From assembly GCA_965215005.1 (NCBI GenBank), contig CBDCCZ010000042.1:160001-224000 (forward strand): a stretch of DNA of 64,000 bases. Direction: 5' to 3'. The notes beneath the pieces were generated by a model that was not told the origin of the DNA, made no database searches, and was given only the letters and a program-made list of their open reading frames with translations. This DNA comes from Kofleriaceae bacterium (lineage in GTDB: Bacteria; Myxococcota_A; Polyangia; Haliangiales; Haliangiaceae). Shown here in pieces: positions 13,477 through 60,575 of the stretch (position 1 is the first letter of the stretch; every line of letters starts with the position of its first letter). Both the position numbers and the translations under genes were made by a program.

Positions 13477-13713
13477 ACGCCGCCGCGGGACTCATGACGC
13501 AGAAATCCGCCGCCCCGATGCGGGGCAAAGGCGGCAGAGTTCCGCTACTCACGCGCCCCCTTCGGCGTCTCCCCAAGCGATTGTTGCTTTGCTAGCGGTT
13601 CACGACTTCCGCCGTGAACCACTGGTAGCGCCGCCATGACGAAGGCGCCTGCCGCGTCTCCAATCGACTGTTTCGCTTCTAGTGATTCACGATGACCGCT
13701 GCGAGCCACTGCT
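13477..13713 (+). repeat. Palindromic dispersed repeat, fullest intergenic copy (13477-13626) plus degenerate tandem sub-unit (13654-13713)
   Basis: 13477-13598 aligns ungapped to 48189-48310 with 12 mismatches in 122 bp; terminal hairpin GGTTCACG-N8-CGTGAACC. Confidence 0.92.
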
Positions 13714-13768
13714 ACGACAACGACGGAACCGCGCGCAGAGCGGGACGCGGTTGTTCTATGGTTAGCGG

Positions 13769-14668
13769 ATGACAAGAACATGGGTGGGGTTGGTCATCAT
13801 GACGGCTCTGATGAGCTGTCGCGGCGAGAGCGCAACAACCGAGGTCGAGCCGGCCGAGCCGGCCGCCAGCGATTCTCCCGAGCCGGCCGAGGCCGAGCCG
13901 CCGGCCCCGCCGCCCGCTGCGACGGCCCTGCGTTGCGACGAATGGCTATCGCCGGCCATGGTGGCCACCGCGTGCGGTGAGACGCTCACGCTCGCTGCCT
14001 CGGAGTTTATTCCTGACAATGAAATGAGCTGCCGCCGCCAGGGCGAGCTCACCAGCGGCGCCCGGATCGAGCTCATGATTGGCAAGGCCGAGGCCTTCAA
14101 CTGGAAAGTCACTCAGCGCAAGTTTCCCAGCACGCCCGCGGTCACCGAAGAGCGGGGCCGCAAGCTCGCGCGCGTCGGCGCCTTTCCCTATCTCATCACG
14201 GTCACCATGACCCAGCGAGGCCGAGCGAGCCCGGTGTGCGACGACGCCGAAGCAAGCGCGCTTGCCTCCGCCATCGCCGCCGCCGTGCCGCGCGGCGAAG
14301 CACCCGAGGTCGCCGCCGACAATCCTGTTTGTGCGCAGGTATTGAGAACCGCCGATCTCCAGGAGGTCTGCGGCAAAGCAATCGAGCTGCGCTCTACCGC
14401 CATGGAGGATGGCGAGTCAGTGTTTTGCAATCGCACCGGCAGCGGCGGCCTCGTCTTCATCGTCAGCCGCCACCGCGACGCCGCGACCGCCAGCCGCGGC
14501 AAGGAAGTGGCCAGCGAAGGTGGTCGAGGCAACCGCTCCGTCGCAACCCACGACCGCTATCTCGTCGAGCTCAAATCCTTCGATGACTTCGGCGAAACCG
14601 CCGCCTGCACCCAAGCGCAGCTCGACACCCTCACAACGCGCATCACCGAACGACTCGCGGCCCTCTGA
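13769..14668 (+). CDS. Hypothetical lipoprotein with two Cys-containing internal repeats
   Basis: Lipobox LMSC; two similar units (CDEWLS..ACG..CRR and CAQVL..VCG..CNR). Confidence 0.75.
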   Translation: MTRTWVGLVIMTALMSCRGESATTEVEPAEPAASDSPEPAEAEPPAPPPAATALRCDEWLSPAMVATACGETLTLAASEFIPDNEMSCRRQGELTSGARIELMIGKAEAFNWKVTQRKFPSTPAVTEERGRKLARVGAFPYLITVTMTQRGRASPVCDDAEASALASAIAAAVPRGEAPEVAADNPVCAQVLRTADLQEVCGKAIELRSTAMEDGESVFCNRTGSGGLVFIVSRHRDAATASRGKEVASEGGRGNRSVATHDRYLVELKSFDDFGETAACTQAQLDTLTTRITERLAAL

Positions 14669-14739
14669 GTGGGTCGTATACCGGCCGCAGAAGGCGTAGC
14701 TCCTCGCTATCCTCCATGAGAATCAGCGTTCGCCACTCG

Positions 14740-15732
14740 TCATCCTTCGTGCGCATCGACCTTCTGGCAGTCGAACTCGATGCGCAGCGCCTCGCCGGTG
14801 TCAGGATCGGTGTAGTTGCGAACCAGCGTGATCGGAAACGTCGTGGCGTCGGTTGGAATGTCGAGCTCGATGGTGCCGTAGACGTTGCGGCCATATTGAT
14901 CAAAGACGCAGTGAAACGCTTCGCTATCGGGGGCGGACTCGCACGGGCCGCTGGCGATCTCCAGCGGCTCGGGCACGCTGGTCATCAACCGGCCACTCAG
15001 CGCGGCTCCAGCGTCGCCTTCTGCCGCCTCGAGTCCCTCGAAGAACTCAAGACGCAGTGACGACGATCTTTCGGTGCGACATGCAACCACGGGCACCGGC
15101 TCCGCTTCGAGCAAATCCGCCGCGTAGAGCTCCCCCTCGCCAGGCTCGGAGACGCTGGCGATCGCCACCCGCGCGCGATAGACGCCGCTGCCCGTAAGCC
15201 GCTCGAAGTCGCCGCGAAGCGTCAAGTCCGGTCCCGTCAAGCGATCGAGCCGCGCCATCTGCCCATTCCGATCAGCGATGGTACCGACCACCGCGATCAC
15301 CGGTTGCGCCAAGTACACCGTCGCGAGCGCGTAGTCGCCGCTCGGATCCGGGCTCGACGCCATGGTGAGCGCATAGCGCGGCTCCTGGCCATCGGCGATG
15401 CGCCGCTCGGCCTGGGCCCGCAGCACCTGCAACGCCGCCGCGTCGCCCTCGAGCCGATAGCGGGTGATCCCGCCGTGCATCTCCACCCAAAAGTCGAACG
15501 AGCCATCCGCCGCCGGCGCCAGAGTTCCGGTCTGCCGTCGAGCCGAGTCTGGCAACGTTGCCGCAAACGAGATCGCCAGCGGAAACGCGGTTTCCTCTAA
15601 AGCATCGGTCTTACCGCTCGGTCGCGATGGATCAACTTGATCATTAGTGACCTGACCAGTCGAGTCGACGTCCAATAGACATCCACTCGTAGTCAAACAA
15701 AGCATTACTGCTCCCAGCTTGATGACTTGCAT
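14740..15732 (-). CDS. Hypothetical lipoprotein
   Basis: MQVIKLGAVMLCLTTSGC lipobox followed by a GKTD motif; long ORF. Confidence 0.72.
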   Translation of the reverse strand: MQVIKLGAVMLCLTTSGCLLDVDSTGQVTNDQVDPSRPSGKTDALEETAFPLAISFAATLPDSARRQTGTLAPAADGSFDFWVEMHGGITRYRLEGDAAALQVLRAQAERRIADGQEPRYALTMASSPDPSGDYALATVYLAQPVIAVVGTIADRNGQMARLDRLTGPDLTLRGDFERLTGSGVYRARVAIASVSEPGEGELYAADLLEAEPVPVVACRTERSSSLRLEFFEGLEAAEGDAGAALSGRLMTSVPEPLEIASGPCESAPDSEAFHCVFDQYGRNVYGTIELDIPTDATTFPITLVRNYTDPDTGEALRIEFDCQKVDAHEG

Positions 15733-15745
15733 GAAACGCCGCAAA

Positions 15746-15760
15746 GCAGCTTTGGTGCCA
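15746..15760 (-). promoter_or_regulatory. Putative sigma-54 promoter
   Basis: TGGCACCAAAGCTGC on the minus strand, GG-N10-GC spacing, just upstream of the lipoprotein gene. Confidence 0.45.
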
Positions 15761-15845
15761 AGGCACCTCATTCTGCAAACGGCGAATGCACCGCCTTGCC
15801 GACAACAAGGCTCCGGCAGCTTTGCGAGCCAGGCAGCAGCAGTGT

Positions 15846-16778
15846 TCACTCGCGTGGCTCGAACGCGCCGAGGAGACGCGCTAGTTGCGGCATGCGCAAC
15901 GCCAGCCAATTCCCCACGCGCTCGAGACGAAAGAAGCATAGGTACGCGAAGCCGAGACACTGATACGGAAACAGAATGAACATCAGCCCCAAGATGCCCA
16001 GGTGAAACGCCATCACCAAGCCAACCCACATTGCAGCGAAGCGACGCCGCAAGAGCGCGAGCGGCGCGGCCAGCTCGACCACGATGGTGACGGCCGCCAA
16101 CGCACGAAAGAGCCAATGAGCGCGGAGGAGCGGGGTTGCTAGCGGCGAATGAACGTCACCCAATAGGAGCTTGCGCGCGTTGTCGATAGCGACGTAATTG
16201 CGCAACGCATCCCCCCACACCCAGCCCATGCCGGCACCGCGCAGCTTGGCCACGCCAGCCAAGACATACGCCAACACCACCACCGCCATCATTAGCTTTA
16301 GCGGCCAGCCATAGCGGACGTCTGCGCTTGCTGGCGAAGGACGACGCCGCGCATCGAGCGACCACGCATCGGCCGAGGGCACCAGCGCCAAGATAATGAC
16401 ATGCAGCACCAAGAGATTCTCGGTGTGGAAGATCATTCCCCACGAGCTGCGGTAGCTCAGCTGCCAAAGGAGCAACAGGCCAAACAATGGGCCGGTGATG
16501 CGAAACCGCCAGCCGAGAAAGAACGGCACCGAAGCCGCTACTGTGAGCCACGCCAGCAGCGTCACCACCGCGGGCAACAGCGCGCGATCCAGCAGCAGCG
16601 CGACCGGCCCCACCGGCGCGAGCTCGCCTGGGTGATAGCGCGCAACTGCCAGCCAATCGGGCAACCGCGCCACCAGATAGATGCAGCAAAACAGCCCCAC
16701 GAGCAACCGCGTCAGGCCCAACCGAGCCGCCGGCGCAGGCGCCCTCCAGTAGCGATCGAACGCGGCCAAGATCTTCAA
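15846..16778 (-). CDS. HTTM (vitamin K-dependent carboxylase-like) domain membrane protein
   Basis: [42 protein letters not shown] start overlapping upstream stop. Confidence 0.8.
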
Positions 16779-17215
16779 CGTGGCACCCGGCAGAGGCCAT
16801 GGATTCGCTCGGCCCCTGCTCGATCGCGCCCCGTGAGATAGGCGATGGCGTCGTGGGTTCCGGTCACGATGCGAATCTCCACCAGCGGGGACCCGGCGGT
16901 CGCGGCGGCCTCGGCGATGCGCTGGCACAGCGCCTTCGTCGCCGACGCGCCTTGCGCCACCGCGGTTGCGATCATCGAACGCGCCTGCAACACCTCCCGC
17001 GTGCCGAGCAACGCCGGCTCGATGGAACGGCGCTGCCCATCCGCGGTGACGCCCACGGCGTACTGCACCTCGATCGTCGCGTCTTCGCGCGCCCTTGCGA
17101 ACATCGGGTAGCTCGACAGCGGAAAGCTATCCTCGCCTCGCTTCCACGTCAGCGGCCACGCCACAGCGCCCATCACGACGATACTCACCAGGTATGCATA
17201 GAGCCGCGTGCCCAT
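16775..17215 (-). CDS. Hypothetical membrane-anchored HTTM partner protein
   Basis: N-terminal [14 protein letters not shown] motif, two Cys; coupled to the HTTM gene. Confidence 0.75.
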
Positions 17216-17237
17216 CGTGAAGCTCCTCGAGCAGCGA

Positions 17238-18572
17238 TCAAGCGTCGTCTATCTCCGCTCGACGCGCGCGGCGATTGAGCGCGCGCGAGCCAACATAAAC
17301 CAGCAACCCCATCGCGAACGTCACCGCCGCCCACAGCGCCGCGCGAGGCTGCGCAGAAACCACCCAAAACGCCATCCAAGCCGATAATCCAATGAACGCG
17401 ATTGGCGTCACTGGATAGCCAATCGCGCGGTAGCCCTTGGTCACGACGCCACTGCGGCGCTCACGCGCGCGGAACACGAACACGCTCGCCACTGTCGCGG
17501 CTGCAAACACTGACAACGTGAAGCCGATATAGCGAATCAGTTGATCGAGGGGCTCCCACACGAAAAATATCGCCAGCGCCCCTTGCAACAGCACCGCCAG
17601 CACTGGCGCGCCGCGGCGGTTGCGCCGCGCGAGCACGCTTGGCAGCGCGTGATCCTCGGCCATCGCGGTGTAGACGCGGGGACCGGCCATCACCATGGCG
17701 CTCACCGCCGACACCAACGCCAGGGCAATCAACGTGGAGAGCAGATTTCCCGCCTCGCGACCAAACAACGCCACCGCCGCGACATGGCCAACTTCGCCCA
17801 CTCCGGCAAGCGTCGCCGGAGCGGCAGCGTAAAAGTAAACCACGTTTAAGAGCACATACAGCGCCGTCACCAGCGCGGTGCCGAGCAGCAGCGCGCGCGG
17901 CAAGACTCGCTCGGGATCACGCACCTCGCCGGCGAGATACGCGGCCGCGTTCCACCCCGAGTAGGTAAACGCCACGAAGATGAGCGACACCCCGAACTGC
18001 TCGCTTAGCACCGCCTCCAGACCTACGCCGCGTGCTTCGAAGTGCTGCCAAGAGCCCTCTCCCACCGCCAAACCAGCGGCGATAAAGACGCCGATCAGCA
18101 GCACCTTGAGCACCGTAAACGCCGTTTGCACCCGGCTGCCGAGGACGACGTCGGTCGCGTGCACCGCGGTCATCAACACGATCAGCACCACCGCTGGCCA
18201 ACGCGCCGGCAACCCTTCGAACACCGCATGGACGTAGCCGTCGAAGGCGATGGCCGCGGCCGCAATGGGAGCCGAAAATCCGGCTATCAACGACACCCAT
18301 CCCGAAAGAAAGCCAACCACGGGATGATAGGCCTGGCGCAGATAGACGTACTCGCCACCCACGCGCGGCATCCGCACCGCCAGCTCGGCGTACACCGCCG
18401 CGCCGCACAGCGCCAGCACACCTCCGACGAGCCAGCCGATGAGAATCGCGCCAGCGTCGCCCAGGTCGGCCGCCATGAAACCCGAGGTGGTAAAGATGCC
18501 GGTGCCGATCATGTTTGCAACCACGATGGCCGTGGCGGCAACCAGCCCGAGCTTTCGCGACGGCGCGCTCAT
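17238..18572 (-). CDS. APC family amino acid permease
   Basis: NMIGTGIF, YAEL...P..GGEYVYL, FTYSGWN; about 12 TM. Confidence 0.92.
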   Translation of the reverse strand: MSAPSRKLGLVAATAIVVANMIGTGIFTTSGFMAADLGDAGAILIGWLVGGVLALCGAAVYAELAVRMPRVGGEYVYLRQAYHPVVGFLSGWVSLIAGFSAPIAAAAIAFDGYVHAVFEGLPARWPAVVLIVLMTAVHATDVVLGSRVQTAFTVLKVLLIGVFIAAGLAVGEGSWQHFEARGVGLEAVLSEQFGVSLIFVAFTYSGWNAAAYLAGEVRDPERVLPRALLLGTALVTALYVLLNVVYFYAAAPATLAGVGEVGHVAAVALFGREAGNLLSTLIALALVSAVSAMVMAGPRVYTAMAEDHALPSVLARRNRRGAPVLAVLLQGALAIFFVWEPLDQLIRYIGFTLSVFAAATVASVFVFRARERRSGVVTKGYRAIGYPVTPIAFIGLSAWMAFWVVSAQPRAALWAAVTFAMGLLVYVGSRALNRRARRAEIDDA

Positions 18573-19612
18573 GGGCCGGCGGGTACGTGCCGCTCGAGAA
18601 ACGCAAACGAGTCGCGCCAACAGCGCTGCGCCGCAGGCCGCCACACCAGCGCGAAGAACGCATGCATCTCGCCCGGGTAGTAGTGCATCTCGCGCACTGC
18701 GCCGCGGGCCGCGGCAATCTGCTCGAGGCGCCGCGTGTCGTCGAGCAACGGGTCACGCGTGCCCACCGCGGAAAACAGCGCTGGCAACGGCCGATCCGGA
18801 TGCTGCTCCTCGAGCACCACCAGCGGGCTGGCCAGCTCGGCGGAAGGCGCGCTGCCGAGATAGCTTTGCGCGACATCGGCGATGACGTCGGTCACCACCC
18901 GCGGCAGCTTGCGACGCTCGCCGAACCGCGCGTGACGGCTCACCTCGAGGATGCCGCAGTACGGCATGCACACGCGCGGCGGGCGGTTCCGCGCAAACAC
19001 GCGCTGGGCAAATGGCTCGGGTCGGCGGTAGCAGCTCGCCACCGTCACGGCGAGCGCCAAGTTGGCACCGGCGGACTCGCCGGCGACCACCATGCGCGCG
19101 GCATCGCCGCCGTAGCGATGGACGTTGTCTAGCGCCCATTCATAAGCGGCGCAGGTATCCTCCAGCGCCGCCGGAAACGGATGTTGCGGCGCCAGTCGAT
19201 AGTTGATGGTGAGGACCACGTAACCGGCGCGCGCAAACATCAGCGCAAGCGGCCAATGAGTATCCTTCGAACAAGTACAGAAACCACCACCGTGGATGTA
19301 CAGCACCACCGGTCGCAGCGTCCCGCAGCCGCGAGGCCGGTAAACATCGAGCTGGTGCGCGATCGATCCATCAGCGACATAGTTGAGATTGGCGATGATC
19401 TCCACGTCGCCTCGAGCCGCTCGCGCGCGCGGGTGCATCCGCGCAGCGCTCGAGACGCCGCGCAGGACACTCTCGGAGACGACCGTTTTGACCCGCCGAC
19501 TCCATTGCGCGCGCCGCCCGAGCCGCCGCGGAGTCGCTGGCGCAGCGGTCAACGCATCCTCGAGAAGCGCCGCCTCAGCGCGCGCCTCGGGCGACGAATT
19601 ACTAGCCGTCAT
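18569..19612 (-). CDS. Alpha/beta hydrolase (HSL-type esterase/lipase)
   Basis: HGGGF, YRLAP, GESAG, DPL and H catalytic motifs. Confidence 0.92.
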   Translation of the reverse strand: MTASNSSPEARAEAALLEDALTAAPATPRRLGRRAQWSRRVKTVVSESVLRGVSSAARMHPRARAARGDVEIIANLNYVADGSIAHQLDVYRPRGCGTLRPVVLYIHGGGFCTCSKDTHWPLALMFARAGYVVLTINYRLAPQHPFPAALEDTCAAYEWALDNVHRYGGDAARMVVAGESAGANLALAVTVASCYRRPEPFAQRVFARNRPPRVCMPYCGILEVSRHARFGERRKLPRVVTDVIADVAQSYLGSAPSAELASPLVVLEEQHPDRPLPALFSAVGTRDPLLDDTRRLEQIAAARGAVREMHYYPGEMHAFFALVWRPAAQRCWRDSFAFLERHVPAGP

Positions 19613-19815
19613 GAATCCTCCGCGGCGCTTCGCCGCGACCAGCAGGGTAGCGAAGTCACGCCTCACGAGAAAGCTCCCAGGAGCCGATGCCAAGCCAAAG
19701 CCCCCCCGGGCGAGCCAGCCGCCCCAGGCCAAAGCACCGGGGACCTGCCGTGGACGCGGCGCGGCTGGTCATGACCGCTGAGCTTCGCTAAGGTTTGGCT
19801 GCGAGAGTCCCTGCC

Positions 19816-21774: not shown

Positions 21775-21837
21775 CGCGCTTCACGGTAGCACGATGCAGC
21801 GGCTACTCGGCAGCCACGTGCTCCGCGCTGAATGCAG

Positions 21838-23861: not shown

Positions 23862-23901
23862 GCGCCGTCGCCGGCTGCGACGTTGCGACCACCAAGGGCG
23901 A

Positions 23902-31035: not shown

Positions 31036-32778
31036 ATGGTGCTCGCGCTTCTCGCCGCGCTGGCCTCGGTCGCGGCAGGCGCGGCTCTTGGCAGCTTTCG
31101 TGACGTCTCCGGGCCTCGCCTCGCCGCCCTCTTCTATCCCATCCAGACCTTTGCGCTAGCGGCGGTGCTCACCAGCGTCTTTGCGCACCTCTTGCCGGAG
31201 GCGATTTCTGGAGTGGGCCCGTGGGCGCTGGTCGTGTTCGCCGCCGGCATCGCTCTGCCGCCGCTGGCGATGCGCCTGGGCGGCGATGAACATCACTCCG
31301 CGCGCGGCCATGCGATGGCCTTCGAGCTCGGCTTCGTCGGCTTGATGATCCACAAAGTCGCCGACGGCGTGGCGCTGGCGGTCTTCACCAGTGGCGAGCA
31401 CAGCGCCCACAATCATCTCGACATCATCATCGGCATTGCCGCGCACACCATCCCGGTCACTGCCATCATCGTCATCGCGTTTGCTAAGGAGCACGGCCGG
31501 CGGCCGGCGCTGCTGCGCGCCGCGCTGCTGGCGGTAGCCGTCGCCGCGGGCATGGGCGCCACCGTTGCCGGGGGCGAGATGGTCCTCGAAGCCGCCGCCC
31601 CGTGGGCGACCGCGGCGCTGGCGGGGCTGCTCCTGCACATTCTCGCCCACGATCTACCGGTCACCAGTGAGCGCACCGCGGGCGTGCGAGTGGGCGAAGC
31701 GCTGGGATTGATTCTCGGGGTCGCGGTGCCGCTGGTGCTGAGCGGTCATGGCCACGAGCATGGCCACACCCATAGCGCCATTCTCTCGGCACCGATTGCC
31801 ATTGCCGAGCTCGCATTGCAGCTCTCGCCTGCCCTGCTCCTGGGCTTGCTCGGCACTGCCTTGCTCAGTGCCTTCCGCCGCGCCAGCGATACGCGGCGCT
31901 GGCAGTCGCTGGCAGCGCCGGAGCTGTGCTTGGCAACCGTGCTCACGACGGCTGTGTTGCTGGGCGGCGTCGCGGCGGCCGCGCGGCTGGTGACGGCGCT
32001 GGTGCTCGCCAGGCTGCTCAGGCTCTTCCTCGCCTCTACCGCCGTGGGCGCGCCACGCGAAGCGGCGGCACCGCCGGAGCGGAGCTTCGTTGCCGTGATC
32101 GATGCCTACGTGGTGCGAACCGGTCCGTGGCTCATTGTTGGACTGGTGGCCGGCAGCTACGCGCAGCTGTTGCTTGCGCCCGGCGCACTGCAGCTCGCCA
32201 GCTGGCTCGAGGTCCCGCTGGGGACCGCTGCCGCGATCGCGCTCGCCCGCCCGCAGGATCATCGGGCGGTGAGCGCCCAACATGCGCGACATGGCCACGC
32301 AACCGCTGAGCCCGCTGTTGCCGCGGCTCCCGCGCTTCCAGCGGCTCACGACCGAGGCCCCGAGCCACTGCCGGGCGCTGCTGTTTCAGCGGCTGACGAC
32401 GCGCGCCGCGGGTCCAGCTTGGCGTGCAGCGGCGGCTTGGTCTTGCTGGCCGCCGCGCTCATCGCCAAAGGCACCAGCTTGGGTGCTGCCATTGCCGGGT
32501 TGGTGGTGGTCTCGATGATTCCGCACGCACTCGTCGGCAGCTCGGACCGAGCGAGCAACGCGACGCGCACTTGGGGCGCCGCGCTGGCGCTCTTCACGAC
32601 CGCAACGCTGCTCGGCTGGCTCATCAACGCGCTGGCACTGCCGACCGCGCCACCGGCATGGACGCACGGGGAGCTGTATCGCAGCCTGGGTTGGCTGAGC
32701 CTTTCGGCGCTCGCGGCGCTCGTGGTTCGCAGCGTCTGGCGCTTTGGCGCCCAGGCCTGGCTGAGCAGCGAGCGCTGA
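31036..32778 (+). CDS. Putative metal permease (ZIP-like N-half plus DUF318-like C-half)
   Basis: HLLPEA, HKVADG, HTIP, LLHILAH; His-rich linker GHGHEHGHTH; LAAALIAKGTSLGAA. Confidence 0.7.
   Translation: MVLALLAALASVAAGAALGSFRDVSGPRLAALFYPIQTFALAAVLTSVFAHLLPEAISGVGPWALVVFAAGIALPPLAMRLGGDEHHSARGHAMAFELGFVGLMIHKVADGVALAVFTSGEHSAHNHLDIIIGIAAHTIPVTAIIVIAFAKEHGRRPALLRAALLAVAVAAGMGATVAGGEMVLEAAAPWATAALAGLLLHILAHDLPVTSERTAGVRVGEALGLILGVAVPLVLSGHGHEHGHTHSAILSAPIAIAELALQLSPALLLGLLGTALLSAFRRASDTRRWQSLAAPELCLATVLTTAVLLGGVAAAARLVTALVLARLLRLFLASTAVGAPREAAAPPERSFVAVIDAYVVRTGPWLIVGLVAGSYAQLLLAPGALQLASWLEVPLGTAAAIALARPQDHRAVSAQHARHGHATAEPAVAAAPALPAAHDRGPEPLPGAAVSAADDARRGSSLACSGGLVLLAAALIAKGTSLGAAIAGLVVVSMIPHALVGSSDRASNATRTWGAALALFTTATLLGWLINALALPTAPPAWTHGELYRSLGWLSLSALAALVVRSVWRFGAQAWLSSER
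32340..32416 (+). repeat. Two degenerate copies of the repeat hairpin module, in frame within the permease
   Basis: AGCGGCTCACGACCGAGGCCCCGAGCCACTG matches the 13594 hairpin at 23/31 positions; second copy starts 48 bp later at 32388. Confidence 0.6.

Positions 32779-33997: not shown

Positions 33998-34001
<4 letters not shown>
33423..34001 (-). CDS. Isochorismatase family hydrolase
   Basis: LLVIDIQ, QYPKGLG.T, K..FS, GMETHVCVYQ. Confidence 0.92.
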
Positions 34002-36787
<2,786 letters not shown>

Positions 36788-36883
36788 GGGAGCTTCCAGC
36801 TATCGCACACCCTACGCCTGCAATTCCACACGCGGCCGGGGCTCGCTGCGGCCGACAGCCGCGTCACGACCCACGCGGCGGCG

Positions 36884-36919
36884 ACCAGCGATTCACGGCG
36901 ACGTCGCGAACCGCTAGCA
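36884..36919 (-). repeat. Hairpin-only copy of the dispersed repeat
   Basis: ACCAGCGATTCACGGCGACGTCGCGAACCGCTAGCA resembles the reverse complement of 13590-13626. Confidence 0.75.
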
Positions 36920-36932
36920 GCGCCGACGGCGA

Positions 36933-37985
36933 CTAATTCACTTTGGGGGTCAGCTGCTCGAGATGCTCGCGGATCATCTGCTCCGCCAAGCTCGGGACCA
37001 CTTCCCACACCACGCGCTCCACCGTATCGAGGCTAATCCGCAGGAGCGCGTGCATCTCGGGGCTATCGGCAGCGATGCCGAGCTGCTCGGCGGCCGCGGC
37101 CATGGCATCGGAGGCGGCCTTGGCGATCTGCGCGGTGAGCAGCGACGGCCGCTTGGTCGGAGTGCCGGAGATCATCGGCGCCCGCGCCGATGGCGGCTGC
37201 GGCAGGCCCGCCGGCGGGGTTGGCAACGCCCGATCTGCGGCCACGCCCGGCGACGCGGACGGACCGCGCCCCATGCCGCCATCGCCCGTGGCGCTCGACG
37301 GCTGAGCGGCTGGAGTGGGCGTCATCTGCGGCTTGCGCGGCTCACTCGGAGACGCCGCCATGCCGGGCTTGGCCATCGACGGCGGCATCTTGATGGTCGG
37401 CATTCCCATGATGGTTGCCGAACGTTGCGCCGCAGCCGCGGCCGCGGCGCTTTGCGCATTGGCAGTCGCGCTCGGGGTGGGCGGGGGCTTGTTTGCCGCC
37501 GCGGGCCGCGAGGCCATCGCCGGCGAGGGAATGCTCGGCAGCGGCGTGGTCGCGGCGGCGGCGCCGCTGTTGAGACCGGCCGGGCTCGCGGCGCTCGCAC
37601 TCGGGCCTTGCTGGGCAAACTTCTCCAGCAGCTCGCCGACCTTGTCGAGCATCTGCTGGGTGTCCCACGGCTTGGTGAGATAGCCGTCTGCGCCTACCTG
37701 CGCACCCTTGGTGGCATTGTAGGGCTCGGAGTTGCCGCACAGCAGCACCACCGGCACGTCCGCAAGCTCCGGATCGGCCTTGAGCTCACTGCACAGATCG
37801 TAGCCGGTCTTGCCGGGCATGAGCGCGTCCGCCAGGATCAAGCTCGGTCGCTTGGCGCGGGCCCGTTGCAGCGCTTCGTCCGCGCTGCGGGCGCCAACAT
37901 ATTCGTACTCACTCGCGCGGAAGGTAATCTCCGCGACGGTCTGCATCGTCTGGCTGTCGTCGGCGCAAAGGATGGTCTTCGACAC
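36933..37985 (-). CDS. romR: RomR-like polarity response regulator
   Basis: Receiver domain, Pro/Ala-rich linker, C-terminal ERVVWEVVPSLAEQMIRE; directly upstream of valS as in Myxococcus xanthus. Confidence 0.8.
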   Translation of the reverse strand: MSKTILCADDSQTMQTVAEITFRASEYEYVGARSADEALQRARAKRPSLILADALMPGKTGYDLCSELKADPELADVPVVLLCGNSEPYNATKGAQVGADGYLTKPWDTQQMLDKVGELLEKFAQQGPSASAASPAGLNSGAAAATTPLPSIPSPAMASRPAAANKPPPTPSATANAQSAAAAAAAQRSATIMGMPTIKMPPSMAKPGMAASPSEPRKPQMTPTPAAQPSSATGDGGMGRGPSASPGVAADRALPTPPAGLPQPPSARAPMISGTPTKRPSLLTAQIAKAASDAMAAAAEQLGIAADSPEMHALLRISLDTVERVVWEVVPSLAEQMIREHLEQLTPKVN

Positions 37986-38418
37986 TCGGTCCTCCGACTC
38001 GGCTGCTGCGGGGCGAGGCATGGGCCCGGATCCCGTCCCGTTGAGCCCGCGTTTGCGGGCTTCGCTCCTGTCACGTGGTATCACGCAAATCTCGGCACTG
38101 TCAATTTAACCCCCTAATAACCGGCGCCTTTTCCGCCTTCGCGGCATCGGCGCAGGGCTTCGCAGCGCTCCATCTGGGCGCATGGTGGGCGAAGTGCCCG
38201 CAGCGCAGCTGCCGCTGCAGCGCGCTCGACCGTCGTGGGCTCGCGTGCGGCCGCGTCGACGGCGCGCGCCTCGCCGAGGGCCGAGAACGAGGCGAGTTTA
38301 TCGGCTGTCCCGTGCGCCATCGGACACGGGTCACGACCATGGGATCGTGGGGCCGGCGTGAGGCTTCCGACGAGCGCCGAGCACGGAATGTCTTACGCAA
38401 GCGAAACGACGTCGCCCT

Positions 38419-47262: not shown

Positions 47263-48591
47263 GTGACGAAACCCGGCCCCTACCGCTTCCTCGGCCGCGC
47301 CCTGCTGTTCTTGCTACCGGTGCTGCTCCTCCTCTCGCTCGCCGAGGCGATTCTGCTTCGCGGGCGCGAGATTTGGCCGGTCGACCAGGTGCTCGCCTAC
47401 CAAGCCAACCACCCGGATGCGCTGTTCTTGCGCCGCTTCATGACCCAGGAGCTGCAGCGCTACAAATACCGCGGGATCCTCGCAAATAACCCCGACATTG
47501 TGGTGTTGGGCTCGTCTCGGGTGATGCGGCTACGGGCGCTGATGTTCGGCCCCCACGCCAACGTCTACAACGCAGGAGGCATTCTGCAAGCCGCAGGCGA
47601 CCTCGAAGAGCTCGCGAAACGGCTTCCAGAGGCGTCGCTGCCGCGGGTGGCGCTGATAGGCGTCGACGAGTGGTGGCTCAGCGGCCGGTACGTTCCGGGG
47701 GCGGCGCCGCTTGCAGAAGCGCTCGAGCGCGAGCCGACGCGAGATTGGCAGGCGCATCTGCATGCGATCCGCAACCTCGTTCGCTATGCGAGCGCGCATT
47801 CGCGCTTCGTGACCAACGCGATGCGGGGTGTGCCGCCAGACGTCATTGGCTGGGCCGCGACCACCGGCAACGCGTTTCGCGCCGATGGCAGCCTTCATGA
47901 CACCTACGAGGTGCCAACCACCGCCGAAGAGTGGGTGTTTCGCGACCGCGAAGAGCCGCGGGTCGCCGAGCGCATTGACCGTAGTCTGCTGCAATTCGTG
48001 CGCACCAATCACGTCTCGATGGAGGCGCTCGCCAGCTTGCGCCGCGGCTTCGCGATGCTGCGCCGGCGCGGGGTCGCCGTCATCGCGTATCTGCCGCCGA
48101 TGTGCCGCGACATCCGCACCAAGCTGCGCAGCGATCCGGACTGGGCGATGTTCCTCGACGAGCTCGATGTTGCCCTGCCGCGATCACTACGCCGCCGCCG
48201 GATTCAGGACGCGGAAATCCGCCGCCCCGAGGCGGGGCAAGGGCGGCCGATTTCTGCTACTCACGCGCCCCCTTCGGCGTCTCCCCAAACGATTGTTGCT
48301 TGGCTACCGGCCGACCAAGCGCCCCTCTGGTTCGACTTCCGCGCGACCGAGAGCCTGGGCCTCGACGATCGGTATCTGGTCGATTGCCTCCATGCCGTGG
48401 AGACGTTTCACGTCCACATGCTGCGTCGCATGACGGCTGATCCTCGGGTCCGCGAGCTGCTTGGCGAGCTCGAAACCACCGCAGACGCGCTGCTAGCGGC
48501 GCCGAAAACCAACTTCTGGCACGTCGATGTCGAGGGCGCTGCAGCTGCCGCCGACGCGCCCTTCGACGAGATCGGCGAGCCGCAGCGCTAA
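47263..48591 (+). CDS. SGNH-like MBOAT partner protein carrying an in-frame repeat insertion
   Basis: N-terminal TM, GSSR block I, D-x-x-H (DCLH); 7 bp after the MBOAT stop. Confidence 0.75.
   Translation: MTKPGPYRFLGRALLFLLPVLLLLSLAEAILLRGREIWPVDQVLAYQANHPDALFLRRFMTQELQRYKYRGILANNPDIVVLGSSRVMRLRALMFGPHANVYNAGGILQAAGDLEELAKRLPEASLPRVALIGVDEWWLSGRYVPGAAPLAEALEREPTRDWQAHLHAIRNLVRYASAHSRFVTNAMRGVPPDVIGWAATTGNAFRADGSLHDTYEVPTTAEEWVFRDREEPRVAERIDRSLLQFVRTNHVSMEALASLRRGFAMLRRRGVAVIAYLPPMCRDIRTKLRSDPDWAMFLDELDVALPRSLRRRRIQDAEIRRPEAGQGRPISATHAPPSASPQTIVAWLPADQAPLWFDFRATESLGLDDRYLVDCLHAVETFHVHMLRRMTADPRVRELLGELETTADALLAAPKTNFWHVDVEGAAAAADAPFDEIGEPQR
48189..48310 (+). repeat. Dispersed palindromic repeat copy, in frame inside CDS
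   Basis: 110/122 identity to 13477-13598; encodes RRRRIQDAEIRRPEAGQGRPISATHAPPSASPQTIVAWLP. Confidence 0.93.
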
Positions 48592-51834: not shown

Positions 51835-51870
51835 GCGATGCGCAGCAGGCGTTTTCGAGGCCAGATTTCC

Positions 51871-51905
51871 AGCCTCTAGCCTCTAGCCTCTAGCCTCTAG
51901 CCTCT
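51871..51905. repeat. Heptamer tandem repeat (AGCCTCT)x5
   Basis: Five perfect units between convergent modC and aroA; the last overlaps the aroA stop. Confidence 0.95.
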
Positions 51906-55237: not shown

Positions 55238-56328
55238 GAAAGATCTGCTTTGCGGTAGGAGCCGAGCACCTTGACCTGACAGTCCGGCGGAATCGCCGCG
55301 AGCACCGCGGCAATGGGCGGGTCATCGCGATGGCCCTCGAGGTCGAGGAAGAAGACGTATTCCCACGCCTGTCGCTTGGAGGGTCGACTCTCGATTTTGC
55401 TGAGGTTGACGCCGGCCTCGGAGATCGGCCGCAGCGCCTGATAGAGGTCGCCCGGACGGTTGCCGAGCACCAGCAGAAGCGAGGTTTTGTAATCGCCGGC
55501 GGCCGCTCGTGGCTCGTCGACGGCGGCGCCTATCACTAAAAAGCGCGTCGCGTTGCTAGCGGAATCTTGCACCGCGCGGCGCAACACGGAAAGGCCGTAC
55601 ATGCGTGCGGCCATCTCGCCGGCGATCGCGCCACCGGCGCCATCATCGCTAGCGCGGCGCGCGGCAGCGGCGGTGGAAGCGCACTCGATGATGCGCGCTG
55701 CGGGCAGGTTGGCGTGCAGCCACGCGCGGCACTGGGCGATGCCTTGCGGGTGCGAGTAGATGCGCTCGAGCTGCCCTTCGCGTACATCCGCTCGCGCAAG
55801 CAGACACTGCTCCACGGCAATCACGAGCTCCGCGCGAATCACCAGAGGCGTCTCGAGAAAAGTATCGAGAGTGTGGCTGACCACCCCTTCGGTGGAGTTC
55901 TCCACCGGCACCACGCCGAACTCCGCTTGGCCACGCTCGACCTCTTCGAACACCATGGCGATCGAGCCGCAGGGCACCGTTGGCGCCGAGGTGCCGAAGT
56001 GTCGCTTGACCGCCTGATGGGTAAACGTCGCTTCGGGGCCGAGATACGCGACGCGCACGCCCTTCTCGAGGCTGAGGCACGCACTGATCACTTCTTGGAA
56101 CACCGGACGAATCCCACTGGTGGGAAACGGTCCGGCATTGGCCTCTTGCAGGCGATCGATGATGGCGCGCTCGCGACTGGGCACGTAGAAACCACCCCCG
56201 CTCGATTGCTTACACGCGCCAACCGCTTCCACCAGGTGCGCACGGCGATTGAGCAGCGCCAACAGGGCATCGTCGACGGCGTCGATTTCCGCTCGCAAAG
56301 ACGCGAGCTTATCGTCGGCCGGGGCCAT
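55234..56328 (-). CDS. pheA: Chorismate mutase/prephenate dehydratase
   Basis: LRAEIDAVD, YLGPEATFT, PVENSTEG, SHPQ, NATRF, IESRPS. Confidence 0.96.
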   Translation of the reverse strand: MAPADDKLASLRAEIDAVDDALLALLNRRAHLVEAVGACKQSSGGGFYVPSRERAIIDRLQEANAGPFPTSGIRPVFQEVISACLSLEKGVRVAYLGPEATFTHQAVKRHFGTSAPTVPCGSIAMVFEEVERGQAEFGVVPVENSTEGVVSHTLDTFLETPLVIRAELVIAVEQCLLARADVREGQLERIYSHPQGIAQCRAWLHANLPAARIIECASTAAAARRASDDGAGGAIAGEMAARMYGLSVLRRAVQDSASNATRFLVIGAAVDEPRAAAGDYKTSLLLVLGNRPGDLYQALRPISEAGVNLSKIESRPSKRQAWEYVFFLDLEGHRDDPPIAAVLAAIPPDCQVKVLGSYRKADLS

Positions 56329-56400
56329 TGCCGGCAGACTCTACTATAGTTAGCCTCCAGCGCGTAACGCTCTGCGTGCTGCCACCCTCTATCGAAACAG

Positions 56401-58134
56401 ATGCCGCGTATACCACTGCCCTTCCATCGCCGCGTCGGTGCCCTCGCCACCGCCTTCGTGGTCTTGCTGATCCCCGCACTGGCCTGGGCCGGAGGCGACG
56501 GCGACTTCGCCGCCAGTCGCGACAAAGGCGTGCTCGGCCTCTATCTAGCGGCCTACGGCGCCGGCGTGATGACCGCGCTCACCCCGTGCGTCTACCCAAT
56601 GATCCCCATCGTCATTGGCGTGTTCGGCGCCCGCGACGATGGCACCTCGCGCGGCCGCGCCTTCGCCCTCGCCACTTCCTATGTAATGGGCATGGCGCTC
56701 CTCTACAGCGTCCTGGGCGTGTTGTTTGCCCTCGCCGGCAAGCAAGCCGGATCATTGCTCGCCAATCCGTGGGTGGTCCTGCCGATGGTCGCGATGTTCT
56801 TGGCGCTGGCGCTCTCGATGTTCGGCGCCTTCGAAATTCGCGTCCCAATGGCGCTGCAAAACCGGCTCAGTCACGTCGGCGGCCGCGGCTACGCCGGCGC
56901 GTTTGCCATGGGTTTGGTCGGCGGCGTGGTCGCGGCACCGTGCGTGGGGCCGTTTCTCGGCGGCCTGCTCTTCTACATCACCAAGACCCGCGACGTGGTG
57001 CTCGGCGGCAGCGCGCTGTTTGTCTACGCCCTCGGCATGGGGTTGCTGTTTTGGATCGTCGCGGTGTTCACCGGGTCGCTGCCACGTAGCGGCCGCTGGA
57101 TGGAGTGGATCAAGAGCATCGGCGGCATTGGTCTCTTGGTGGTCGCGCTGTACTTCCTGCGGCCCATCGTTCCCGCTCTCGAGAATGTCGTCGTCAAGGA
57201 CCTGCGTTTTCTTCTCGGAGCGCTGGGTTTGGTCGGCGCCGGCATCGCGCTCGGCGCGGTGCACCTCTCGTTCTACGATCGCTGGAGCATCAAGCTGCGC
57301 AAAGGCCTGGGCGTGGCGTTGGCCGTTACCGGCGCCGCCGGAGTTTGGTTTTGGACGCTCACGAGCGATCGCAAGCTCGACTGGGTGCACGATGAGGAGC
57401 TGGCGTTTGCGCAGGCGCGCGCCGATGGCAAAGCGGTGATGATCGATTTCGCCGCCGATTGGTGCTCGCCGTGCAAGAAGCTCGAGATCGTCTTCGCAAA
57501 ACCTGAGGTGTTCACGCTGCTCGAGGAGCGCTTCGTGCCGCTCAAGTACGATGTCTCAAACGGCACCGATGCGGATGAGGCGGCGCAAACCAAGTGGGCG
57601 GCAGAAACGTTGCCAGCGGTCATCTTCGTCGACGCCAGTGGCCGCGAGCTAGCCCGGGTCAAGGATCTGGTGGAAGCCGAGGAGATGGTCGCCGTCATCG
57701 AGCGCGCGCTGGCTATCGCCGAGGAGCTGCCCGCCGCGCCCCCCGCCGAAGAGCAGTCCGTGGCTCCTGCCGCGAGCGACGCGCGCGCGCTGCCCTGGGT
57801 TGAGCGCGATGCGCAGAGCGCCTTCGCTGCCGCCCGCGCGGCCGGCAAAGGAGTGATGGTCGACGTGTCGGCAGAATGGTGCGCCTCCTGCGAAGAGCTC
57901 GAGGCGACGTTTGCAGCGGCGCCGGTGTTCCAGCGGCTCCAGGCGCACTACGTGCCGGTCAAGATCGACGTCACGGCCGGCACCGCTGAGGACCAAGCGC
58001 TGCAGAGCGAGTATCAGGCCTCGACGCTGCCAACTGTCATCTTCTACGACGCCGACGGCAAGGAAGAGGGCCGGATCACTAAATACCTAGCCCCGGCCGA
58101 ATTTCTGGCCACCCTCGACTCCTTCGCCCGCTGA
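56401..58134 (+). CDS. DsbD/CcdA-like thiol:disulfide interchange protein with two thioredoxin domains
   Basis: LTPCVYPMIP, APCVGP, SGRWM; WCSPC and WCASC. Confidence 0.9.
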   Translation: MPRIPLPFHRRVGALATAFVVLLIPALAWAGGDGDFAASRDKGVLGLYLAAYGAGVMTALTPCVYPMIPIVIGVFGARDDGTSRGRAFALATSYVMGMALLYSVLGVLFALAGKQAGSLLANPWVVLPMVAMFLALALSMFGAFEIRVPMALQNRLSHVGGRGYAGAFAMGLVGGVVAAPCVGPFLGGLLFYITKTRDVVLGGSALFVYALGMGLLFWIVAVFTGSLPRSGRWMEWIKSIGGIGLLVVALYFLRPIVPALENVVVKDLRFLLGALGLVGAGIALGAVHLSFYDRWSIKLRKGLGVALAVTGAAGVWFWTLTSDRKLDWVHDEELAFAQARADGKAVMIDFAADWCSPCKKLEIVFAKPEVFTLLEERFVPLKYDVSNGTDADEAAQTKWAAETLPAVIFVDASGRELARVKDLVEAEEMVAVIERALAIAEELPAAPPAEEQSVAPAASDARALPWVERDAQSAFAAARAAGKGVMVDVSAEWCASCEELEATFAAAPVFQRLQAHYVPVKIDVTAGTAEDQALQSEYQASTLPTVIFYDADGKEEGRITKYLAPAEFLATLDSFAR

Positions 58135-58143
58135 TCCGCCTCG

Positions 58144-59127
58144 CTAGCGCACGGGCACGCCCAGATGCAAGATGCGCGAGCCGGCGCGAGCCGCTGGGTT
58201 GTTGCTCTTGCCAACGCACACCCCCGCCTGCGGCGCCACGTATTCACGCACCAGATCGCCCCAGACATTGCGCAAGCGGCCGATGACCTCGCCTTCGGCA
58301 ATCGATGCGGCCAGCTCGGGATAGACCTCGAGCACTCCGCCGCGGTCGGTGTAGAGCCAATACGAGCTGCCACATTCGATGCAGGGACGCGGCGCGTCCG
58401 CCTGTCGGCTGCTCACCATCTCGAGGTACTCGAGCACCCCTTGGATCCCCAGCTGCGCTTCCTGCACCAGCCCGTGCTGAAAGCGCTGAGGATCGCCAAC
58501 CTCCACGGTCACCGCGTGCACCCCCATCTCCGCCATGGCCGCGCGAAAGGTTCCGTCGCCGCCGGTGTTGTGCACGATGATCTGCGGACTGATCAGTCGG
58601 GCCAGCGCGGCAGTTTCGGAGCGGGTCATGTCGGCGCGCACGTACAGCGAGTTGACGCGCCCGAAGCTGGCGGTGTGCAGATCGATCAAGTAGTGGAAGT
58701 GCGACGCGATGCGCTGCAGGAACCGATGCGCGTACAGCTGGCCGCAGTTGCCGTCGGGCTTGCCGGGCATGATGCGATTGAGATCTTGGCCATCCTCGAA
58801 CGCACGCTGATGGTTGAGGTATCCCGGGATGTTCATGATCGGCACTGCCACCAGCGTGCCGCGTAGCAGCTGCTCGGCGTTGACCGACTCGATGAGCTCG
58901 TGGATCACCGAAATGCCGTTGAGCTCGTTGCCGTGGACCACGGCGGTGATGCCGACGATAGGCCCGGGTTTGGGTGCGCGCAGCACCAACACCGGAACCA
59001 GGGTCTCGTTACCGGTGGCGTTCTCGCTCATCACCACACGTACCCGATGCGCTCCAGGACCCAATGCTTGTAAATCGAGCGCAGAGACGATGGGCGGTCG
59101 AACGAACGGTTTCGGCGAGAGAGTCAA
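58144..59127 (-). CDS. Succinylglutamate desuccinylase/aspartoacylase family (M14-like) protein
   Basis: HGNELNG, DLNR..PG, IDLHTAS, TVEVG. Confidence 0.9.
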   Translation of the reverse strand: MTLSPKPFVRPPIVSALDLQALGPGAHRVRVVMSENATGNETLVPVLVLRAPKPGPIVGITAVVHGNELNGISVIHELIESVNAEQLLRGTLVAVPIMNIPGYLNHQRAFEDGQDLNRIMPGKPDGNCGQLYAHRFLQRIASHFHYLIDLHTASFGRVNSLYVRADMTRSETAALARLISPQIIVHNTGGDGTFRAAMAEMGVHAVTVEVGDPQRFQHGLVQEAQLGIQGVLEYLEMVSSRQADAPRPCIECGSSYWLYTDRGGVLEVYPELAASIAEGEVIGRLRNVWGDLVREYVAPQAGVCVGKSNNPAARAGSRILHLGVPVR

Positions 59128-59207
59128 TCGATGCCTCCTGCGACAGCGCGTTCGTCAGCTTGCAACTACACGCTTGCAGGAGCAACGCATCAAGTACGAC
59201 GCCGCGT

Positions 59208-59263
59208 GTCTCCCCAAGCGATTGTTGCTTTGCTAGCGGTTTGCCGACTCACGCCGCAAACCA
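59208..59263 (+). repeat. Partial copy of the dispersed repeat with a compensated hairpin
   Basis: 34 bp identical to 13567-13600, then stem GGTTTGC..GCAAACC in place of GGTTCAC..GTGAACC. Confidence 0.88.
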
Positions 59264-59459
59264 CGAGAGGCTCGGTTGTAGTGAGCGCGACAGCCACCGG
59301 GGGGTCGCCATCGTGGGTCGGCGGTGACCCGGGGTCGCTTTCGACCCATGGGCTGCTCGCGCACCTTTACGCACGAAAAACAGCTTCGTTTGCTCGCTCA
59401 CTCAAGAATTCGCGACTGTTTACCGAGTTTGGCCAATGGCGCCCCGCGGCCGCGATCGC

Positions 59460-59475
59460 TGGCCTGCATTTCGCA
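59460..59475 (+). promoter_or_regulatory. Putative sigma-54 promoter for fliA
   Basis: TGGCCTGCATTTCGCA, GG-N10-GC, followed by AGGAG RBS and ATG 59504. Confidence 0.45.
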
Positions 59476-59503
59476 CAAGAGGCTGGTCAAGGAGACGACG
59501 ACC

Positions 59504-60193
59504 ATGCCCGCACTCGCCAACGCTCAGCTCGACTCTCGCGACGACCTCATCGCTTCTCATCTCGATATGGCGCGACGCCTAGCGAGAAAGATGGCGCGTC
59601 GACTGCCGCGCAGCGTTCGCTTCGACGAGCTCGAGAGCGCCGCGCTCCTCGGGCTCACCGAAGCCGCCACGCGCTACGACGCGACCCGCGGCGAGCCGTT
59701 CGTCGCCTACGCCGCCAAACGCGTGCGCGGCGCGATTCTCGACGAGCTGCGCCGCTGCGACATCCTCACCCGGCGCGGCCGCGAAGGCGCCCGTCGGCTC
59801 GAAGAAGCGACCCGCACCGTCGAGCTGCGCGCCGGCCGACCGGCGACCACCGACGAGATTGCCAAGGAGATGGGCCTGAGCACCGATGAAGTCTCTCGTG
59901 CCCGTGCGCGGTTGTCGGCGCCGGCGCTGGTTCCCATCGAAGATGCCCGCGATCTGCCGCGCACCGAGGACAGCGACGCCCCCGACGAGCTGTGCATTCG
60001 CAGCCAAGAGAAAGCCGCGTTGGCCGATGCGCTCAAAAAGCTGCCCGAGCGCGACCTGATGGTGCTGTCGATGTACTTCCAAGACAGCTTGACCCTCAAG
60101 GAGATCGGCGACGTCCTCGGCGTCTCCGAGTCTCGCGCCTGCCAAATTCGCGGCCGCGCGCTGCGCGCCCTGCGCCGCCTGGTCATCGACTGA
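59504..60193 (+). CDS. fliA: FliA/WhiG family sigma factor (sigma-28)
   Basis: RVRGAILDELRRCD, LTLKEIGDVLGVSESRACQI. Confidence 0.9.
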   Translation: MPALANAQLDSRDDLIASHLDMARRLARKMARRLPRSVRFDELESAALLGLTEAATRYDATRGEPFVAYAAKRVRGAILDELRRCDILTRRGREGARRLEEATRTVELRAGRPATTDEIAKEMGLSTDEVSRARARLSAPALVPIEDARDLPRTEDSDAPDELCIRSQEKAALADALKKLPERDLMVLSMYFQDSLTLKEIGDVLGVSESRACQIRGRALRALRRLVID

Positions 60194-60299
60194 AACCCTC
60201 GCTCCTGCGCTATCGCACTGCTTGCGCATCGCGCTTACCAATCCGTCCATCAGCAACGCAAAGCGGCCTACGCCGACATGCCGCGCTATACTACCTGCC

Positions 60300-60575
60300 G
60301 TGCCTCAGCGACCCAGCACCTCCCATGCCTCTGCAGCGCGCCAGCAGCGCGTGGAGGAAATCAAGCGCCGAATCCGCGAGGGCCGCTATGAGATCGACTA
60401 CGACAGCCTCGCAGATAGGCTCCTAGCGGTTCACGGCGGAAGTCGTGAACCGCTGGAAAAACCACCATCGCTTGGGGAGACGCCGAAGGGGGCGCCTGAG
60501 CAGCAGAAGTCTGCCGCCCTTGCCCCGGCCGACGAGGGCGAAGCCAGCGGCGACGACGAGCGACCGCAGAGCTGA
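60300..60575 (+). CDS. flgM: FlgM-like anti-sigma-28 factor with repeat-derived C-terminal tail (start uncertain, 60222 or 60300)
   Basis: RQQRVEEIKRRIREGRYEIDYDSLADRLL matches the FlgM C-terminal motif; follows fliA. Confidence 0.78.
   Translation: MPQRPSTSHASAARQQRVEEIKRRIREGRYEIDYDSLADRLLAVHGGSREPLEKPPSLGETPKGAPEQQKSAALAPADEGEASGDDERPQS
60423..60527 (-). repeat. Inverted copy of the dispersed repeat, in frame in flgM
   Basis: Matches the reverse complement of about 13521-13625; perfect 11-bp stem AGCGGTTCACG/CGTGAACCGCT. Confidence 0.92.

Follow-up and report, generated by a model that had tools for sequence, protein, structure and literature searches.

For insertion sequences (ISs) of the IS630 family, a target TA lying within 5'-CTAG-3' was reportedly described by Tenzen and Ohtsubo in 1991. 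Elements of this family such as IS630 and ISY100 insert into TA and duplicate it, as described in PMC2170065. For the much smaller transposable elements of the miniature inverted-repeat type (MITEs), in-frame fusions with genes are called 'not unusual' in the account given by PMC10969869, where the Rickettsia palindromic elements (RPEs) figure as the extreme case. Here we describe a dispersed palindromic repeat of 147 nt in the genome of a Kofleriaceae bacterium (GCA_965215005.1; labeled G000, with G016, G043, and G092 as labels for genomes of relatives and C plus a number for contigs), which came to attention in a stretch of 64,000 nt, hereafter the window (C42:160001-224000 of a 6.21-Mb assembly of 62 contigs, 92.8% complete; G+C of the window 61-70%). 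The repeat is probably a MITE, i.e., a miniature non-autonomous DNA transposon, of the IS630/Tc1-mariner kind. With its 147 nt, a lack of coding capacity for a transposase and many dispersed copies, it resembles a MITE in these respects, and a transposase of the IS630 family is encoded in the same host.

Mechanical repeat finding recovers the family within the window, where segments 13477-13598 and 48189-48310 are 90% identical, the linker of the unit recurs at 13567, 13654, 48279, and 59208, and segment 60419-60527 is complementary to 13521-13629 at 88%. When the genome was searched by blastn with 13477-13640, 124 high-scoring segment pairs were obtained, 49 of them near full length, and an nhmmer profile built from 48 of these 49 copies gives 169 matches at E<0.01, all at distinct loci and spread over many contigs. 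Of these, 84 are near-full copies and 85 are partial, the latter covering only the left part (27), only the right part (51), or an internal piece (7). Median identity to the consensus is 92% (n=69 copies), and only 9 of 2,346 copy pairs reach at least 98%. In contigs of one sample holding this DNA, depth over the element is 156-345 versus about 6 in the flanks. The first-pass annotation, which was made from the letters of the window alone, had proposed a non-autonomous mobile element, probably abundant genome-wide, and both parts of this proposal are borne out by the census, by the sharp ends described below, and by a homologous family in a second genus.

The unit opens with its left end (GTACGCCGCCGCGGGATTGATGA), which is followed by a long hairpin with imperfect pairing (about 50 nt), then by a linker rich in T (...GGCGTCTCCCCAAGCGATTGTTGYTTT), and lastly by a hairpin bounded by CTAG. 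This right hairpin has a 13-bp stem with CTAG at both feet, and its outer arm forms the right end of the unit. Pairing in both hairpins is maintained by double, compensatory changes, within as well as between genera. When pairs were counted on the folded consensus, 39 copies had A-T and 10 had G-C at pair 29-71, 43 had C-G and 17 had T-A at pair 129-144, and in the long hairpin several pairs proved to be switched in 9/9 copies of the second genus. In the 52 copies that have both ends, the preceding four bases are C32/T12/A5/G3, T38, A41, and G45, and the element ends with C52, A40/G10, C50, T45, A44, and G43. Both ends are thus sharply bounded, with a left-flank signature (C/T)TAG and an end CTA(G). 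A duplication of 4 bp is excluded because copies with TTAG on the left still carry CTAG on the right, and the pattern fits a TA duplication inside NTAN, preferably CTAG, by an element that would start with G and end with C. In head-to-tail arrays, one TAG is common to the adjoining units at each junction. Arrays of 2 to 3.5 units are found at four places:
C38:43186-43716
C23:18850-19148
C46:21137-21437
C9:91183-91473
The array on C38 represents a variant subfamily with a different hairpin stem.

A search of the genome with PF13358 identifies an IS630-family element of 1517 bp, a length which we take to be long for the family, whose 381-aa protein combines a helix-turn-helix (HTH) with DDE_3 (Pfam) and scores 248 bits against NCBIfam transpos_IS630 (cut-off 100). 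Besides fragments, there are three full copies that are at least 99.6% identical:
C14:184022-185538, full copy, with the gene for the 381-aa transposase at C14:184365-185507
C6:55895-57411, full copy
C21:67493-69007, full copy
This co-resident element is active. CTA stands directly before each of the left ends found (7/7) and TAG directly after each exact right end (2/2), and the CTAG/TA insertion signature is common to the repeat and the IS630-family element. When a tandem IS-IS junction is left out, 2/6 of the IS left ends coincide exactly with the CTAG that ends a repeat hairpin; as 186 of the 6,730 CTAG sites are within repeats, this placement has p=0.011. The first-pass annotation had seen neither a transposase nor a clear target-site duplication, a statement that has to be narrowed, since outside the window an IS630-type candidate and a TA-in-CTAG signature exist. 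It had also suggested to look for an IS5-type transposase flanked by the hairpin; searches with PF01609 (DDE_Tnp_1, IS4/IS5-type) and PF01548 give 0 matches in this genome. Three observations may be added. On C6, two copies of the IS630-family element are arranged head to tail with one TA in common. The left 340 nt of the element hold an open frame of 104 codons on the opposite strand with an HTH-like stretch. Finally, a fourth DDE_3 match, in C19:53400-56700, is a fragment of 147 codons from a different DDE_3 gene that has no relation to the IS630-family element at the DNA level; ORF translations from this region look plasmid-like by eye (RepA-like, ParA-like), an impression not checked against any library.

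A connection between repeat and IS630-type elements is drawn from the left end, for which 63,288 TAG-anchored 23-mers of the genome served as controls. The left end of the repeat agrees with the terminal repeat of this genome's IS in 16/23 bases, which is equaled by only 3 of the 63,288 controls. Relatives of the IS630-family transposase are encoded in 15/80 other genomes of the family, one of them (G092) unpublished and not used for any other result here, and the closest, with 65% protein identity, is found in G043, where the IS has a perfect 23-bp terminal repeat, GTACGCCGTCGCAGCGGTTCTGA, with CTA directly before it. The left end of the repeat matches this terminal repeat in 12/14 and 16/23 bases, values reached by 2 and 4 of the 63,288 controls, respectively, and the match of 12/14 exceeds that between the two IS ends themselves (10/14).

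We propose the following course of events. An IS630-family DDE transposase supplied in trans would cut the unit out, and the unit would be pasted into the TA of CTAG, less often of TTAG, whereby TA would be duplicated. As G is the first base of the element and C its last, both junctions would again read CTAG. In this genome of 66% G+C, CTAG is scarce and often includes a TAG stop codon. Insertions on a stop codon would rebuild the stop, would therefore be harmless and would persist, whereas insertions inside genes would persist only if the site read CTA|G, in which case the element would be stop-free in both orientations and would add 49 codons. Because of such selection, copies would be intergenic, flush with stop codons or, rarely, in frame. 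What we infer here is that an IS630-type enzyme mobilizes the unit and that TA is duplicated, whereas the family with its copy number, the flank signature that it has in common with the co-resident IS, the similarity of the left end, the in-frame insertions, and the conservation of both hairpins are observed.

Several points weigh against this proposal. The right end of the repeat agrees with the IS end of its own genome in 8/23 bases, which is chance level, and with the G043 IS end in 11/23, which is weakly above chance. The left end and the reverse-complemented right end of the repeat share 13/23 bases (reached by 494 of the 63,288 controls), which speaks for the proposal, although the inverted repeat that they form is weak and imperfect. 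With the co-resident IS, the agreement over the left 23 bases is only about 70%, so this IS may not be the actual partner. An autonomous element with both repeat ends is not present in this assembly; four pairs of a left end and a right end in the same orientation lie within 8 kb, of which one consists of two adjacent copies and three enclose ordinary genes. No DDE_3 gene was found in G016, the other genome that holds the repeat, whose assembly is fragmented (500 contigs). Contigs from two runs of one sample, apparently the source sample, break at the repeat and provide no empty site, so that TA duplication is deduced from flank statistics alone, and an element inserting 3' of CTAG and itself ending with CTAG would yield identical sequences. 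Last, strict cut-and-paste between two terminal repeats does not account for six short forms of about 50 nt that consist of linker and right hairpin, have almost identical left breakpoints, lack the left end, and are preceded by xTAG in 5/6 cases:
C3:117880-117929, linker and right hairpin
C9:51712-51756, linker and right hairpin
C38:79082-79132, linker and right hairpin
C3:91029-91077, linker and right hairpin
C44:78572-78619, linker and right hairpin
C12:144126-144177, linker and right hairpin

These short forms, together with the 51 right-only matches, would be understandable if the right hairpin, with or without linker, were the mobile minimal unit and used its two arms as inverted ends, while the left 100-nt module were an older, fused IS630-type MITE that hitch-hikes. 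The internal CGGCGTC at about positions 91-96, which pairs with the left end, could then be a relic of a right terminal repeat, and the IS left ends found exactly at a hairpin's terminal CTAG would also suit such a composite. We nevertheless regard this origin as unlikely. The 84 near-full copies are bounded by the same outer signature, which indicates that the composite moves as one unit, and G016 has the same composite layout. In addition, internal deletion and decay explain the partial copies equally well, and one copy joins the left end directly to the hairpin. The hairpin is also central to another explanation. The first-pass annotation had pointed to repetitive extragenic palindromic (REP) sequences and their REP-associated tyrosine transposases (RAYTs), and on a reading of this kind, a RAYT-type (HUH Y1) or IS200/IS605-derived enzyme would recognize the CTAG-led hairpin of a REP/REPIN-like element, cleave single-stranded DNA at CTAG, and insert 3' of it without duplication. 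The right module, a tetranucleotide with a hairpin, is indeed REP-like, this hairpin is the part most conserved across genera, xTAG precedes most of the short forms, and the flanks equally allow insertion 3' of CTAG or TA duplication. Moreover, five paralogous Y1 (HUH) genes for proteins of about 220 aa are present in the genome:
C25:2926-3714, Y1 gene
C3:186037-186717, Y1 gene
C17:91299-91979, Y1 gene
C4:217105-217866, Y1 gene
C46:5216-5881, Y1 gene
In NCBIfam they match the REP-associated tyrosine transposase best, but the score of 33.9 bits stays below the cut-off of 80. Each Y1 copy has its own conserved left end with a hairpin CAGAC...GTCTG, and the copy on C17 also has an inverted hairpin downstream. 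These conserved ends occur only beside Y1 copies, are not dispersed, and differ from the hairpin of the repeat. Compared with the repeat, the flanks of the Y1 genes are at shuffle level in 9/10 tests, and in the tenth they align to a fragment of another Y1 gene. Copies of the repeat lie within 6 kb of only 3/5 Y1 genes, the nearest at about 0.4 kb. The Y1 genes thus form a small family of IS-like type that has no relation to the repeat of 147 nt, and an association of the repeat with RAYTs is not supported. Considering in addition the significant similarity of the left end to IS630-type terminal repeats, we think it quite unlikely that an enzyme of this class moves the repeat. Orientation of the repeat shows no clear association with GC skew (28/43 versus 32/25, p=0.075), in a comparison whose gene-strand control is also weak.

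A very different explanation would be that the repeat is a motif selected by the host at the RNA or DNA level, for example a 3'-end stabilizer of mRNA, a terminator or a protein-binding site, which spreads mainly by recombination and selection. Compensatory changes keep both hairpins within and between genera, 23/134 copies directly follow stop codons, and the window copy folds as RNA better than 198/200 shuffles (z=-2.8). As DNA, it does not fold better than shuffles (z=-1.3), RNAalifold on an alignment of 78 rows returns an empty consensus structure, an Rfam scan of the 64-kb window gives 0 matches at gathering score, and neither hairpin has a T-run behind it, whichever orientation is read. 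Copies point both ways with respect to the gene next to them (13 left-end and 10 right-end stops) and are also found inside genes. As more than 50 unrelated loci show sharp boundaries together with a fixed target motif, which indicates insertion, such a host motif seems highly improbable, and a MITE of the IS630 kind remains our preferred interpretation.

With regard to how such a MITE might be recognized at its right side, it is worth mentioning that the right hairpin arm AGCGGTTCACG resembles AGCGGTTCTGA, which is the inner portion of the terminal repeat in the G043 IS. If one assumes that this inner part binds transposase, the right hairpin might replace a conventional right terminal repeat, and one hairpin would offer two inverted transposase sites, an idea that we consider speculative and rather improbable. 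If it were true, hairpin-only (about 30 nt) and linker-plus-hairpin (about 50 nt) units would be mobile alone and would be among the smallest mobilizable DNA units, and there would be a route for REP-like hairpins to arise from the ends of DDE transposons.

In the window, copies of the repeat are present in both orientations, as had been reported before. For each candidate site, a local alignment to the genome-wide consensus was compared with 200 shuffles of the site; alignment scores and the respective best shuffle are given for the partial copies, together with the nhmmer or hairpin profile match:
13475..13622, plus strand: full-length copy (nhmmer C42:173474-173623, profile positions 2-151, E=4.8e-47)
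13650..13710, plus strand: degenerate partial copy with linker and right hairpin (profile positions 89-151, E=3.9e-4; 13640-13730 scores 60, best shuffle 30)
36884..36919, minus strand: hairpin-only copy (hairpin profile match C42:196919, minus strand, E=0.0011; 36860-36940, hairpin only, scores 41, best shuffle 33)
48188..48310, plus strand: copy of 123 nt (41 codons) without the right hairpin (profile positions 4-126, E=2.5e-32; 48170-48330 scores 202, best shuffle 36)
59206..59264, plus strand: partial copy with linker and a variant right hairpin (profile positions 93-150, E=7.4e-11; 59190-59280 scores 81, best shuffle 29)
60423..60527, minus strand: reverse partial copy that breaks off inside the long hairpin (profile positions 49-150, E=8e-28; 60400-60540 scores 183, best shuffle 39)
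Six of the seven sites that had been listed for the window are confirmed. The seventh, a claimed plus-strand copy at 32340..32416 within the membrane-protein ORF 31036-32778, is not supported as a family member, as its alignment score is at chance level (37 for 32230-32440, best shuffle 39) and nhmmer gives no match; the 580-aa protein of this ORF, which had been called a permease, is without a Pfam family. Under the TA-duplication reading, the full-length copy 13475..13622 would measure 148 nt from G to C. On its left it is flanked by TTAG (13472-13475), which overlaps the first G of the element, and on its right by a degenerate CTGG and then TAG (13622-13628). It is situated between a methyltransferase ORF (12439-13227) and ORF 13769-14668, and the degenerate copy 13650..13710 starts 27 nt downstream of it. 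The hairpin-only copy lies between the genes for valyl-tRNA synthetase (33998-36799, minus strand) and a response regulator (36933-38105, minus strand), and the copy at 59206..59264 between a gene of the succinylglutamate desuccinylase/aspartoacylase family (58144-59154, minus strand) and a fliA-like sigma factor gene (59324-60193), all assigned by Pfam.

Gene context was evaluated genome-wide for the 134 nhmmer matches at E<=1e-5 with our own, crude ORF caller, which predicts 4,060 stop-to-stop ORFs over 83% of the genome and misses short genes such as flgM, so that the numbers for gene overlap are minimum figures. Intergenic copies are the largest group (62), 37 lie only in the 5' overhang of stop-to-stop ORFs, 28 at the 3' end of a gene, and 7 are internal, with coding signal on both sides. 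CTAG is under-represented in this genome (observed/expected 0.67). The terminal TAG of the copy is the stop codon of a predicted gene in 23 of the 134 cases (13 with the left end, 10 with the right end), compared with 390/6,535 at other CTAG sites (binomial p=5e-6). Only 2/6 frames of the consensus lack stop codons, one per orientation, and both correspond to a target read as CTA|G. As 147 nt are 49 codons, the reading frame is kept, and these two stop-free frames are the ones used by all internal copies. By our own estimate from base composition, some 30% of random frames of 49 codons would be open at this G+C content, and the open frame of the element is hence not designed. The confinement of internal copies to stop-free frames and their small share (7/134) are explained by survivorship. 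Insertions random in frame had been named as a refuting observation; the internal copies are non-random in this respect, with this explanation.

At least five genes carry genuine in-frame copies, and flgM has an element-encoded tail. In the SGNH-like ORF 47263-48591, copy 48188..48310 lies in frame and accounts for an inserted segment of about 40 residues, which 7/7 homologues drawn from a large protein collection lack, and the blocks on both sides of it, including the C-terminal D..H motif, align; orthologues were not found in 25 relatives. In the FlgM ORF 60222-60575, the last 49 codons are supplied by copy 60423..60527, and the Pfam FlgM match (residues 35-68, profile positions 21-54 of 55) ends where the element begins. 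Elsewhere in the genome, a Ser/Thr kinase contains the element inside its AAA_16 match, a CheA-like kinase between the Hpt domain and the catalytic part, and a phosphoglucomutase between domains II and III; a GNAT acetyltransferase carries an in-frame insert as well. Two more internal copies, on C49 and C18, are called by the ORF caller alone. Of the three in-frame sites that the first-pass annotation had named in the window, the SGNH-like gene and flgM are thus retained and the permease is not confirmed, and its expectation that the element creates new peptide segments is correct for a minority of copies. For annotators, the repeat explains low-complexity inserts of 40-50 residues and C-terminal tails in proteins of this genome that are conserved otherwise, including those in FlgM, the CheA-like kinase, and phosphoglucomutase.

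Outside this genome, BLAST with the unit finds the repeat in 1/40 relatives, namely in G016, which belongs to a different genus of the same family, and in 0/5 additional genomes in which IS630 relatives occur. About 15 copies (16 matches) are present in G016; their left half is diverged, their right hairpin is nearly identical, and their flank signature is the same as in the genome studied here. An exact scan of 185,579 species genomes with the linker 23-mer gives 0 loci, whereas the hairpin 24-mer gives 5 loci, all in one metagenome-assembled genome (MAG) of a 'Nannocystineae bacterium' (Myxococcota), apparently identical to G016; in metagenome contigs of JGI, the hairpin 24-mer has 0 loci. 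Nannocystineae are not known to be flagellated, and the present genome shares its family with the MAG of that label. It possesses the fliA-like sigma factor gene and flgM in the window (59324-60575) and five tandem flagellin genes at C4:121149-125719. As a further observation from the window, a 15-nt tandem repeat (GCCCGACCTCGAGCC-like) at 61089-61146 encodes repeated LEPLD motifs inside the 555-aa MshEN-domain ORF 60445-62112.

A full-text literature search found no description of this repeat family nor of MITEs in Myxococcota, and within the scope of this search and of the Rfam scan of the window the repeat matches no described family, as had been supposed at first sight. A Halobacterium paper that pairs MITE and CTAG is about the methylation of CTAG and has no bearing here. 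With the repeat, a MITE family with clear limits becomes known from a flagellated and uncultured relative of the myxobacteria, and our searches found no MITEs described for this group. It also illustrates how target choice and selection together shape the sites at which copies survive, with an element that seeks CTAG/TA being found beside rebuilt TAG stops and in one frame of genes.

In comparison with known systems, the repeat resembles IS630-family ISs and MITEs in its TA-in-CTAG signature, its small size, its non-coding nature, its many copies, and its homologous left end. It differs from them in that its right end is the outer arm of a palindromic hairpin and a poor inverted copy of the left end, in that no partner with both ends was found, and in that short forms without the left end occur. 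Correia elements of Neisseria (Correia repeat enclosed elements, CREE) duplicate TA. Their terminal repeats of 26 bp are good, and they carry promoters as well as a site for IHF; the repeat is likened to them by description, not by sequence. What they share with it, following the description in PMC10969869, are a length of 100-200 nt, more than 100 copies, a location beside or inside genes, hairpins in transcripts, and the lack of a transposase of their own. RPEs, as portrayed in the same source, are similarly palindromic, have about 150 bp, and lie in frame in unrelated genes to which they add peptides (PMC10969869). However, RPEs are mostly intragenic, with 44 ORF insertions and 11/12 homologues in frame according to that source (PMC10969869), in contrast to 7/134 internal copies here. 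The repeat is further set apart from RPEs, again by description, by its CTAG/TA target, its IS630-like end, and its other host lineage. With REP/REPIN sequences, as far as these are characterized in the sources consulted, the repeat has in common a conserved tetranucleotide beside a G+C-rich hairpin and a high copy number. Unlike in REP/REPIN-RAYT systems, the RAYT-like genes of this genome are without this hairpin, and the repeat is 147 nt long, has an IS630-like end, and is also intragenic. MITEPsy1 of Pseudomonas syringae, as presented in PMC3189936, is a bacterial MITE of 100 nt that inserts at CTAG or YTAA. By the same account it duplicates all 4 nt and is tied to an IS5-family element (PMC3189936), whereas for the repeat a 4-nt duplication is excluded and no PF01609 gene was found in the genome. 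As a MITE, the repeat therefore is a new family of a known kind, with an in-frame behavior already known for MITEs; it opens no new class of system, and only the unusual right end formed by a hairpin might prove to go beyond a known kind.

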